This document shows positions 5,643-36,596 of a stretch of 64,000 nucleotides of DNA, one piece after another. The notes beneath the pieces are model-generated. The model was given only the letters and a program-made list of their open reading frames with translations, made no database searches and was not told the DNA's origin. The stretch comes from Escherichia coli (GTDB taxonomy: Bacteria; Pseudomonadota; Gammaproteobacteria; Enterobacterales; Enterobacteriaceae), in the NCBI RefSeq assembly GCF_003334405.1, contig NZ_QOWM01000002.1. The stretch is one strand, 5' to 3'. The position numbers and the translations under genes are program-made. Position 1 is the first letter of the stretch, and each line of letters begins with the position of its first letter.

Positions 5643-7979
5643 ATGAAGCAAATTCGTCTGCTGGCGCAGTATTATGTTGACCTGATGATGAAGTTAGGTC
5701 TGGTGCGCTTCTCAATGTTGCTGGCGCTGGCCCTCGTCGTTCTTGCCATTGTGGTACAAATGGCGGTAACCATGGTGCTGCATGGTCAGGTCGAAAGCAT
5801 TGATGTTATTCGTTCTATCTTCTTTGGTTTGCTGATTACGCCGTGGGCGGTCTACTTTCTATCGGTGGTCGTCGAGCAACTGGAGGAGTCACGACAACGT
5901 CTGTCACGGCTGGTGCAAAAACTGGAGGAGATGCGCGAGCGCGATTTGAGCCTCAACGTTCAGTTAAAAGATAATATTGCCCAGCTAAATCAGGAAATTG
6001 CCGTTCGTGAAAAAGCGGAAGCAGAACTGCAGGAAACCTTCGGCCAACTGAAAATTGAAATCAAAGAGCGCGAAGAGACACAAATTCAGCTCGAGCAGCA
6101 ATCCTCATTCTTACGTTCCTTCCTTGATGCTTCACCCGACCTGGTTTTTTATCGTAACGAAGATAAAGAGTTTTCCGGCTGTAACCGCGCGATGGAGCTG
6201 CTGACCGGAAAAAGCGAAAAACAACTGGTTCACCTGAAACCTGCTGATGTTTACTCACCGGAAGCCGCCGCAAAAGTCATTGAAACCGATGAAAAAGTGT
6301 TCCGTCATAATGTGTCACTGACCTATGAACAGTGGCTGGATTACCCGGACGGGCGCAAAGCCTGCTTTGAAATCCGTAAAGTGCCGTACTACGACCGCGT
6401 GGGTAAACGTCACGGTTTGATGGGCTTTGGTCGCGACATTACCGAGCGTAAGCGGTATCAGGATGCGCTTGAACGGGCCAGCCGCGACAAAACGACGTTT
6501 ATCTCCACCATCAGTCACGAATTGCGTACACCGCTGAACGGTATCGTCGGTCTGAGCCGCATTCTGCTGGATACCGAACTCACCGCCGAGCAGGAAAAAT
6601 ATCTCAAGACCATCCATGTTTCGGCCGTCACGCTGGGGAATATCTTTAACGATATTATCGACATGGATAAGATGGAACGGCGCAAGGTCCAGCTTGATAA
6701 TCAACCGGTTGATTTCACCAGCTTCCTTGCCGATCTGGAAAATCTCTCCGCATTGCAGGCGCAACAAAAAGGATTGCGCTTTAACCTGGAGCCGACGCTG
6801 CCATTACCGCATCAGGTCATTACCGACGGGACGCGTTTACGGCAGATCCTGTGGAACCTCATCAGTAACGCCGTCAAATTCACCCAGCAAGGCCAGGTTA
6901 CCGTGCGCGTGCGCTACGATGAAGGCGATATGCTGCATTTTGAAGTGGAAGACTCTGGTATCGGCATTCCGCAGGATGAGCTGGATAAAATTTTCGCCAT
7001 GTATTACCAGGTGAAAGACAGTCATGGCGGTAAACCTGCCACCGGCACCGGTATTGGTCTGGCCGTTTCTCGTCGTCTGGCGAAAAATATGGGCGGCGAT
7101 ATTACGGTTACCAGCGAACAGGGCAAAGGTTCAACCTTTACGTTGACGATCCACGCACCGTCGGTAGCAGAAGAGGTCGATGATGCGTTTGATGAAGACG
7201 ATATGCCTTTACCGGCGCTGAATGTGCTGCTGGTGGAAGACATTGAACTGAACGTGATTGTTGCGCGTTCTGTGCTGGAAAAATTAGGTAACAGCGTTGA
7301 TGTCGCCATGACCGGCAAGGCGGCGCTGGAGATGTTTAAACCGGGCGAATACGACCTGGTGTTGCTGGATATTCAGTTGCCAGATATGACCGGGCTGGAT
7401 ATCTCTCGTGAACTGACGAAACGTTATCCGCGCGAGGATTTACCGCCGCTGGTGGCCTTAACCGCTAACGTGCTGAAAGACAAACAAGAGTACCTCAATG
7501 CTGGAATGGATGATGTGCTGAGTAAGCCGCTTTCTGTTCCGGCGCTAACCGCGATGATCAAGAAATTCTGGGATACCCAGGATGATGAGGAGAGTACGGT
7601 GACGACAGAAGAGAACAGTAAATCAGAAGCATTGCTCGATATTCCCATGCTGGAACAGTATCTCGAACTTGTAGGACCGAAGCTGATCACCGACGGGTTA
7701 GCGGTGTTTGAGAAGATGATGCCGGGCTATGTCAGCGTGCTGGAGTCGAATCTGACGGCGCAGGATAAAAAAGGCATTGTTGAGGAAGGACATAAAATTA
7801 AAGGTGCGGCGGGGTCAGTGGGGTTACGCCATCTGCAACAGCTGGGTCAGCAAATTCAGTCTCCTGACCTTCCGGCCTGGGAAGATAACGTCGGTGAATG
7901 GATTGAAGAGATGAAAGAAGAGTGGCGTCACGACGTAGAAGTGCTGAAAGCGTGGGTGGCAAAAGCCACTAAAAAATGA
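5643..7979 (+). CDS. arcB: aerobic respiration control sensor histidine kinase ArcB
   Basis: 778 aa ORF with N-terminal TM segments, PAS, HisKA (SHELRTPLN), HATPase, receiver and Hpt domains. Confidence 0.97.
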   Translation: MKQIRLLAQYYVDLMMKLGLVRFSMLLALALVVLAIVVQMAVTMVLHGQVESIDVIRSIFFGLLITPWAVYFLSVVVEQLEESRQRLSRLVQKLEEMRERDLSLNVQLKDNIAQLNQEIAVREKAEAELQETFGQLKIEIKEREETQIQLEQQSSFLRSFLDASPDLVFYRNEDKEFSGCNRAMELLTGKSEKQLVHLKPADVYSPEAAAKVIETDEKVFRHNVSLTYEQWLDYPDGRKACFEIRKVPYYDRVGKRHGLMGFGRDITERKRYQDALERASRDKTTFISTISHELRTPLNGIVGLSRILLDTELTAEQEKYLKTIHVSAVTLGNIFNDIIDMDKMERRKVQLDNQPVDFTSFLADLENLSALQAQQKGLRFNLEPTLPLPHQVITDGTRLRQILWNLISNAVKFTQQGQVTVRVRYDEGDMLHFEVEDSGIGIPQDELDKIFAMYYQVKDSHGGKPATGTGIGLAVSRRLAKNMGGDITVTSEQGKGSTFTLTIHAPSVAEEVDDAFDEDDMPLPALNVLLVEDIELNVIVARSVLEKLGNSVDVAMTGKAALEMFKPGEYDLVLLDIQLPDMTGLDISRELTKRYPREDLPPLVALTANVLKDKQEYLNAGMDDVLSKPLSVPALTAMIKKFWDTQDDEESTVTTEENSKSEALLDIPMLEQYLELVGPKLITDGLAVFEKMMPGYVSVLESNLTAQDKKGIVEEGHKIKGAAGSVGLRHLQQLGQQIQSPDLPAWEDNVGEWIEEMKEEWRHDVEVLKAWVAKATKK

Positions 7980-8091
7980 CCCCGGCTAGACCGGGGTGCG
8001 CGAATACTGCGCCAACACCAGGGAAATCTTGGCTGCGCCGTAAATTATTATGATGAGTTACAAGGGCACAGCACTGTTTTTCAGGCCGCAC
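7971..8091 (-). ncRNA. arcZ: ArcZ small RNA (RyhA/SraH), antisense overlap with arcB 3' end
   Basis: Reverse complement of 7971..8091 reads GTGCGGCCTGAAAAACAGTGCTGTGCCC...CACCCCGGTCTAGCCGGGGTCATTTTTT, matching ArcZ as I recall it, with terminal hairpin and U-tract. Confidence 0.85.
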
Positions 8092-8208
8092 GCAGTTAAG
8101 ATAGCAAAACTTAAATGATTTGTTACATGAATCAGTTAAATGTGTGATGCGTACCATTTTTATTAAAAAAATTAATGTGTTTCAGTCAATTGCGAAAGGA
8201 TGATCACA

Positions 8209-8862
8209 ATGAAGAAAATTGGCGTAATTCTGAGCGGATGCGGCGTCTATGACGGTTCTGAAATTCATGAAGCGGTGTTGACGTTGTTAGCTATTTCACG
8301 CAGCGGTGCGCAGGCGGTCTGCTTTGCACCGGATAAGCAGCAGGTTGATGTTATCAACCATTTAACTGGCGAAGCGATGACGGAAACGCGCAATGTGCTG
8401 ATTGAAGCGGCACGAATAACGCGCGGTGAAATCCGTCCTCTGGCCCAGGCCGATGCCGCTGAACTGGATGCGTTGATTGTGCCGGGGGGGTTTGGCGCGG
8501 CGAAGAATTTAAGCAATTTTGCCAGTCTTGGTAGCGAATGCACCGTTGACCGTGAATTAAAGGCGCTGGCACAAGCGATGCATCAGGCCGGAAAACCGCT
8601 TGGTTTTATGTGTATTGCCCCGGCGATGCTGCCGAAAATTTTCGATTTCCCGCTGCGTTTGACCATCGGTACTGATATCGATACCGCAGAAGTGCTGGAA
8701 GAGATGGGCGCGGAGCATGTGCCGTGTCCTGTCGATGATATCGTGGTTGATGAAGACAATAAGATTGTCACCACCCCAGCATATATGCTGGCGCAGAACA
8801 TTGCAGAAGCGGCGAGCGGCATTGATAAGCTGGTTTCCCGCGTGCTGGTTCTGGCTGAATGA
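8209..8862 (+). CDS. elbB: glyoxalase III-like DJ-1/PfpI family protein ElbB
   Basis: Track ORF 8200..8862; ATG at 8209 gives 217 aa [21 protein letters not shown]... Confidence 0.93.
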
Positions 8863-29705: not shown

Positions 29706-29824
29706 AATCTCGCGCTAACAACCTGGAATCGAGCCGTCATACTACGGCGCAACGCCCTATAAAGTAAACGATGACCCTTCGGGAACTTCAGGGTAAAATG
29801 ACTATCAAAATGTGAATTGTAGCT

Positions 29825-29858
29825 GACCTGGGACTTGTACCCGGGTCGGTATTTTTTT
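29825..29858 (+). terminator. greA leader hairpin plus U-tract (attenuator; region of the reported GraL leader RNA)
   Basis: GACCTGGG-ACTTGTA-CCCGGGTC hairpin followed by TTTTTTT about 95 bp upstream of the greA ATG. Confidence 0.5.
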
Positions 29859-36509: not shown

Positions 36510-36596
36510 GCCGAGGTGGTGGAATTGGTAGACACGCTACCTTGAGGTGGTAGTGCCCAATAGGGCTTACGGGTTCAAGTCCCGTCCTCGGTACCA
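36510..36596 (+). tRNA. leuU: tRNA-Leu (anticodon GAG)
   Basis: GCCGAGGTGGTGGAATTGGTAGACACGCTACCTTGAGGTGGTAGTGCCC...GGTACCA: long variable arm, GAG anticodon, encoded CCA. Confidence 0.95.

Follow-up and report, generated by a model that had tools for sequence, protein, structure and literature searches.

The question raised by this locus is how the gene for the sensor kinase ArcB and a small RNA encoded on the opposite strand come to share their 3′ ends, and whether the few bases held in common matter to the circuit in which both take part. The window, i.e. the whole 64,000-nucleotide stretch of Escherichia coli DNA that was analysed, contains arcB at 5643..7979 on the plus strand. The open reading frame list, annotation as arcB (b3210) and a match to the NCBIfam equivalog NF008302 (1483.1 bits against a cut-off of 838, with residues 1-778 aligned to profile positions 1-779) all identify its product as the 778-residue hybrid sensor histidine kinase ArcB. 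The final codons are AAA AAA TGA (Lys-Lys-stop) at 7971-7979, and both the open reading frame list and the translation put the stop TGA at 7977-7979, in agreement with the original prediction.

That prediction further assigned 7971..8091 on the minus strand to the small RNA ArcZ (also known as SraH or RyhA), an assignment that proves correct to the base. Comparison of the whole window with Rfam 15 gave a match to RF00081 (ArcZ) at 8091..7984 on the minus strand, scoring 120.8 bits against a gathering score of 66 (E = 4.1e-27) and spanning the full model (1-106 of 106). The segment 7850-8250 shares 100% identity with E. coli K-12 MG1655 (NC_000913.3), in which arcZ (b4450, 3350577..3350697) and arcB (b3210, 3350689..3353025) are annotated on opposite strands, and the comparison with the known ArcZ sequence that had been called for shows the arcZ sequence of the window to be 100% identical to annotated b4450. 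The full-length RNA of 121 nt runs from a G at 8091 to the end of its 3′ U-tail at 7971 and is sited between arcB, with which it is convergent, and elbB, whose open reading frame begins at 8200 on the plus strand. The coordinates are right to the base and the resemblance is not due to chance; sequence, strand, length, neighbours (arcB and elbB) and a 9-nt overlap are all those of E. coli ArcZ (RF00081, b4450), from which the window locus does not differ, being the type example itself. On the basis of identity, strand and coordinates computed here, and of the published regulation discussed below, we are highly confident that this is the canonical convergent arcB-arcZ pair of E. coli K-12, with its mutual-inhibition loop. 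Whilst arcZ is annotated in NC_000913.3, it is absent from most RefSeq records; the PGAP-annotated E. coli records inspected (e.g. NZ_CP032667.1, L002) list only arcB and elbB and omit arcZ.

Of 5426 complete E. coli genomes, 5417 carry the 201-bp arcB-arcZ junction used as a query, each covering at least 80% of it, and 5395 match it with an identity of 99% or higher. The longer, 401-bp query (7850-8250) was less than 80% covered in 54 of these 5417 genomes; as the shorter query is well covered and the longer is not, the variation does not lie at the junction, and probably sits toward elbB, in the spacer between it and arcZ or at its beginning. One E. coli genome has a second copy, and one of the places is on a plasmid. 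Elsewhere in the window, five other RNA features exceed their Rfam gathering scores, namely the small RNA SraG (47270-47441, minus strand) and, on the plus strand, the S15 (rpsO) leader (46926-47040), naRNA4 (45343-45413), the rimP leader (40544-40644) and the greA leader (29736-29857), all of which are expected in this region of the E. coli K-12 chromosome; genes for tRNA-Leu(GAG) (36510-36596) and tRNA-Met(CAT) (40379-40455) are also present on the plus strand.

Where the two genes meet, their transcribed features overlap on opposite strands by 9 nt according to the NC_000913.3 annotation, corresponding to 7971..7979 of the window. This A/U-rich stretch reads AAAAAATGA on the plus strand, where it forms the Lys-Lys-stop of arcB, and UCAUUUUUU on the minus strand, where it provides the last stem base and the U-tail of ArcZ. 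The opposite-strand annotation and the 9 shared nucleotides thus bear out the convergent sense/antisense pair that had been proposed, but the further claim that the ArcZ terminator overlaps the last arcB codons stands only in part: it holds for the U-tail and for one base of the stem, and fails for the hairpin, which lies almost wholly outside arcB. The Rho-independent terminator hairpin, ACCCCGG-UCUAG-CCGGGGU, occupies 7979..7997 on the minus strand and was recovered by a terminator scan, by the minimum free energy fold of the 121-nt ArcZ RNA and by the fold of a 40-species alignment, in which the two inner pairs show compensatory change, G-C being replaced by A-U on both sides in 8 and 9 sequences. 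It is the sole terminator-like site that the scan reported in 7600-8400, with stem ACCCCGGU/GCCGGGGU (7997..7979) and tail CAUUUUUUAG, the sequence after the stem being read by the scan as CATTTTTTAG. Only the last base of the stem-loop, opposite the A of TGA, falls within arcB, the rest being intergenic, and the tail CAUUUUUU alone covers the stop and the two final lysine codons of arcB, being the complement of AAA AAA TGA.

The same end of the RNA carries the processed form of ArcZ. Hfq and RNase E yield an active 56-nt 3′ form (PMC11331407), and from this length its 5′ end may be placed such that the form extends over approximately 7971..8026 on the minus strand, with the invariant seed UUCCCUGGUGUUGGCGCAGUAUUCGCGCACCCC and a small GCGC/GCGC stem. 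In the alignment of 40 species drawn from the matches listed, the seed TTCCCTGGTGTTGGCGCAGTATTCGCGCACCCC is invariant in all 40, and a run of 33 columns, beginning with TTCCC and ending with CACCCC, shows no variation, 22 of them being the search pattern itself.

On the plus strand, the sequence across the arcB end is ...GCC ACT AAA AAA TGA CCCCGGCTAGACCGGGG TGCGCG..., such that the hairpin is followed by UGCGCGAAUACUG, without a U-run, and the scan found no plus-strand terminator-like site in 7600-8400. As the arcB strand of the hairpin has no T-run, arcB transcripts probably pass beyond it, where they would be complementary to the ArcZ body and, in full, to the ArcZ seed; from the absent plus-strand terminator we infer that the overlap of the two RNAs is likely to exceed 9 nt. 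The 9-nt A/U-rich overlap alone is too weak for stable pairing. Further along the plus strand there is an antisense copy of ArcZ stem-loop 1 (8032-8083) and then CUGUUUUUCAGG, whose T-run at 8077-8081 could be a stop for arcB read-through in E. coli; the A-run in the ArcZ 5′ part that matches this T-run is conserved only in Escherichia, Citrobacter and Salmonella. The plus-strand (arcB-sense) RNA folds no better than shuffled sequences (z -1.25), and we claim no structured arcB 3′ element.

The alternative to such read-through is that the hairpin at 7979..7997 acts as a bidirectional terminator shared by arcZ and arcB, in which case only some 28 complementary nucleotides (hairpin and tail) would be common to the two transcripts. 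In favour of this, the hairpin is close to a palindrome, can also form in the plus-strand RNA and lies directly 3′ of the arcB stop; moreover, bidirectional terminators are said, in work attributed to Ju et al. in 2019, to be common between convergent E. coli genes. However, neither the sequence that follows the hairpin on the plus strand, which lacks a U-run, nor the outcome of the scan on that strand is what such a terminator would lead one to expect, and the bases that flank the hairpin belong to the ArcZ seed found unchanged in every aligned species. An A-run is therefore impossible at this position, which prevents a U-run on the arcB strand and means that arcB can have no intrinsic terminator of its own there. 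A shared bidirectional terminator is accordingly disfavoured, and we regard it as unlikely.

The extent to which the overlap is maintained was examined in GTDB species-representative genomes, which were scanned with the 22-nt ArcZ core (exact match in the seed) to give at least 120 loci, from species that are phylogenetically related and by a retrieval that requires the seed 22-mer. The genera among the matches listed include Escherichia, Salmonella, Citrobacter, Enterobacter, Erwinia, Pantoea, Yersinia and Rahnella, together with Photorhabdus, Xenorhabdus, Proteus, Providencia and Morganella. When the arcB stop was located by tblastn and in-frame extension, 108 loci (the window included) offered enough arcB sequence, and in 91 of these 108 among the matches listed the stop, TGA or TAA, abuts the ArcZ hairpin with an overlap of 9 nt (16 loci), 10 nt (33 loci) or 11 nt (42 loci). 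ArcB ends in Lys-Lys in 92 of the 108 listed loci; in the 91 abutting loci among the matches listed the last two lysine codons are AAA without exception (182/182), as against an AAA share of 65.6% for the other lysine codons within the C-terminal 250 codons of these genes.

The canonical overlap is missing from 17 of the 108 loci among the matches listed, mostly in Pantoea and Mixta, where the arcB stop is displaced past the ArcZ T-run by as much as 10 nt, leaving no overlap; a Pluralibacter-like group has an overlap of about 2 nt. At a set of loci with a shifted arcB end (L018, L030, L034, L038, L039, L055, L065, L074, L082 and L105, for the most part Pantoea and Mixta), the gene either overlaps the last 0-2 bases of the T-run or stops as much as 10 nt past it, and the hairpin is still followed by TCA and then T7-9, as if a former Lys-Lys-stop had been kept for the sRNA tail. 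One further locus (L100:126-255) has eight A's, as against seven, before the stop, and its arcB frame runs through the hairpin to a C-terminus of ...RKKMTPA-stop with an overlap of 22 nt; the extra A may have arisen as a homopolymer error in sequencing, or the extension may be real. A T-run of 5-9 follows the ArcZ hairpin in 121 of 121 loci among the matches listed, and in 120 of the 121 it is preceded by TCA or TTA. The retention of these bases suggests that the primary constraint is the tail of ArcZ and not the C-terminus of ArcB.

The claim that arcB and ArcZ belong to one regulatory circuit is upheld by published work. A convergent arcB-ArcZ pair within a single circuit is credited to Argaman 2001 and Mandin & Gottesman 2010 in the passages of PMC11331407, PMC4152358, PMC3937726 and PMC4281340 that deal with this locus. 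According to the 2024 ArcZ review (PMC11331407), arcZ is found after arcB and in reverse orientation, overlap is usual, phosphorylated ArcA represses arcZ and ArcZ represses arcB; following Mandin & Gottesman 2010, the relevant passage of the same review speculates that arcB mRNA is an antisense RNA that destabilises ArcZ. Conversely, the passages of PMC4152358, PMC3937726 and PMC4281340 that treat ArcZ credit Mandin & Gottesman with showing that ArcZ destabilises the antisense arcB mRNA. In PMC4281340, ArcZ is described as binding the arcB 3′ UTR together with the 6 nt of coding sequence that precede the stop; added to the 3-nt stop, these 6 nt equal the 9-nt overlap in the window. The ArcA ChIP study PMC3798270 found no ArcA site upstream of arcZ, which counts against the ArcA-arcZ link in the loop. 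In Erwinia, an arcB translational fusion without the 3′ end was unresponsive to ArcZ (PMC6895013), a result that fits action of ArcZ at the arcB 3′ end, without proving it. In the RIL-seq study PMC5145812, arcB goes unmentioned in the main text.

A sequence of events can be proposed in which expression and dependence on Hfq and RNase E (PMC11331407, PMC4152358), repression by ArcA and the effect of ArcZ on arcB mRNA are taken from the literature, whereas the terminator structure and the conservation of the overlap come from the computations described here. ArcZ would be transcribed from 8091 to 7971 on the minus strand and end at the intrinsic terminator, its U-tail complementing the last two lysine codons and the stop of arcB. 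The Hfq-dependent RNA would be trimmed by RNase E, as reported in the literature, to the 3′ fragment of about 56 nt, which would base-pair in trans with targets such as rpoS, flhDC, sdaC and tpx. At low oxygen, ArcA phosphorylated by way of ArcB would repress arcZ transcription, and pairing of ArcZ with the 3′ end of arcB mRNA would lower the level of this mRNA and so close the mutual-inhibition loop. As to the pairing mechanism and the extent of arcB read-through, we infer that read-through RNA may pair with ArcZ over a length far greater than the 9 annotated bases.

Conversely, the overlap might reflect mere genome compaction without cis-antisense function, with ArcZ acting in trans only and its effect on arcB being indirect (e.g. 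through RpoS or ArcA). Such a view would accommodate an annotated overlap of just 9 nt, the statement in PMC4281340 that how ArcZ lowers arcB mRNA "remains to be determined", and the existence of lineages without overlap (Pantoea, Mixta and, according to PMC11331407, Pectobacterium) in which ArcZ and its T-run are nevertheless kept. It is less readily reconciled with the destabilisation of antisense arcB mRNA by ArcZ, as related in the ArcZ passages of PMC4152358, PMC3937726 and PMC4281340, with retention of the arrangement in 91 of 108 loci among the matches listed, or with the absence of a plus-strand terminator, by which arcB transcripts should reach anti-ArcZ sequence. Pure compaction is hence also disfavoured, and we consider it quite improbable.

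The remainder of ArcZ is less constrained. Its 5′ stem-loop (8032..8072, minus strand) follows the Rfam consensus structure line, with GCUGUGCC at 8072-8065 paired to GGCGCAGC at 8039-8032; these paired segments vary between genera (as judged by eye, not counted), and the 5′ half as a whole is highly variable in sequence and length across genera. A candidate arcZ promoter, read by hand at 8098..8126 on the minus strand, comprises a -35 element GTAACA (8126-8121), a 17-nt spacer and an extended -10 element TGcTATCTT (8106-8098). It is weak, agreeing with the consensus at 8 of 12 positions, and its end lies 7 nt before the first base of ArcZ; a consensus promoter scan returned no sigma-70 site. 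In PMC3937726, arcZ was inactivated by a -10 mutation, chosen so that the overlapped arcB stays undisturbed. A mechanical 62-residue open reading frame (7969..8157, minus strand) in the six-frame list overlaps both ArcZ and this promoter. The notion that it encodes a small protein, instead of or besides the sRNA, has that listing in its favour, but is rejected as having virtually no chance of being correct, since its start codon, ATG at 8157, precedes the ArcZ 5′ end (8091) by 66 nt and is thus outside the transcript, the region includes the variable 5′ half of ArcZ and shows no conservation as coding sequence, and no CDS is annotated over it in the records inspected.

The convergent pair also invites a more speculative reading, in which the 9-11 bp overlap is a dual-use element under joint selection and arcB mRNA a built-in sponge for ArcZ. 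We put this forward tentatively, as a possibility with the balance somewhat against it. It draws on the uniform use of AAA for the terminal lysine codons, on the T-run and TCA/TTA being kept even at loci with a shifted arcB stop, and on the invariant seed beside the hairpin, which denies arcB an intrinsic terminator there. Were it true, the Lys-Lys-stop of ArcB would be a passenger of the ArcZ terminator and of its Hfq-binding U-tail, and every arcB mRNA would bear a perfect anti-ArcZ seed, such that mutual repression would be stoichiometric and not only transcriptional; even so, this would represent a modest refinement and not a novel type of system. The small RNA, the overlap and the feedback loop linking ArcZ to ArcAB are already known, with descriptions dating from 2001-2010 and annotation in the reference genome. 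To the review's statement that overlap is usual, the present counts (91 of 108 loci among the matches listed, with an absolute preference for AAA) add a quantitative measure. Because a known sRNA was placed to the base from sequence, the locus is also useful as a positive control for a sequence-only scan.

Two other pairs provide the closest comparison. GadY and gadX (PMC4152358) resemble ArcZ and arcB in that an Hfq-associated sRNA is convergent to the 3′ end of a regulator gene and acts on its mRNA through perfect complementarity. However, GadY stabilises gadX mRNA after RNase III processing, whereas the reported effect of ArcZ on arcB mRNA is a decrease, and ArcZ has many targets in trans. 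McaS and abgR (PMC4281340) likewise combine a trans-acting sRNA with overlap of the 3′ UTR of a convergent gene; in contrast to ArcZ, which is reported to repress arcB, McaS is reported to leave its antisense abgR mRNA unaffected.
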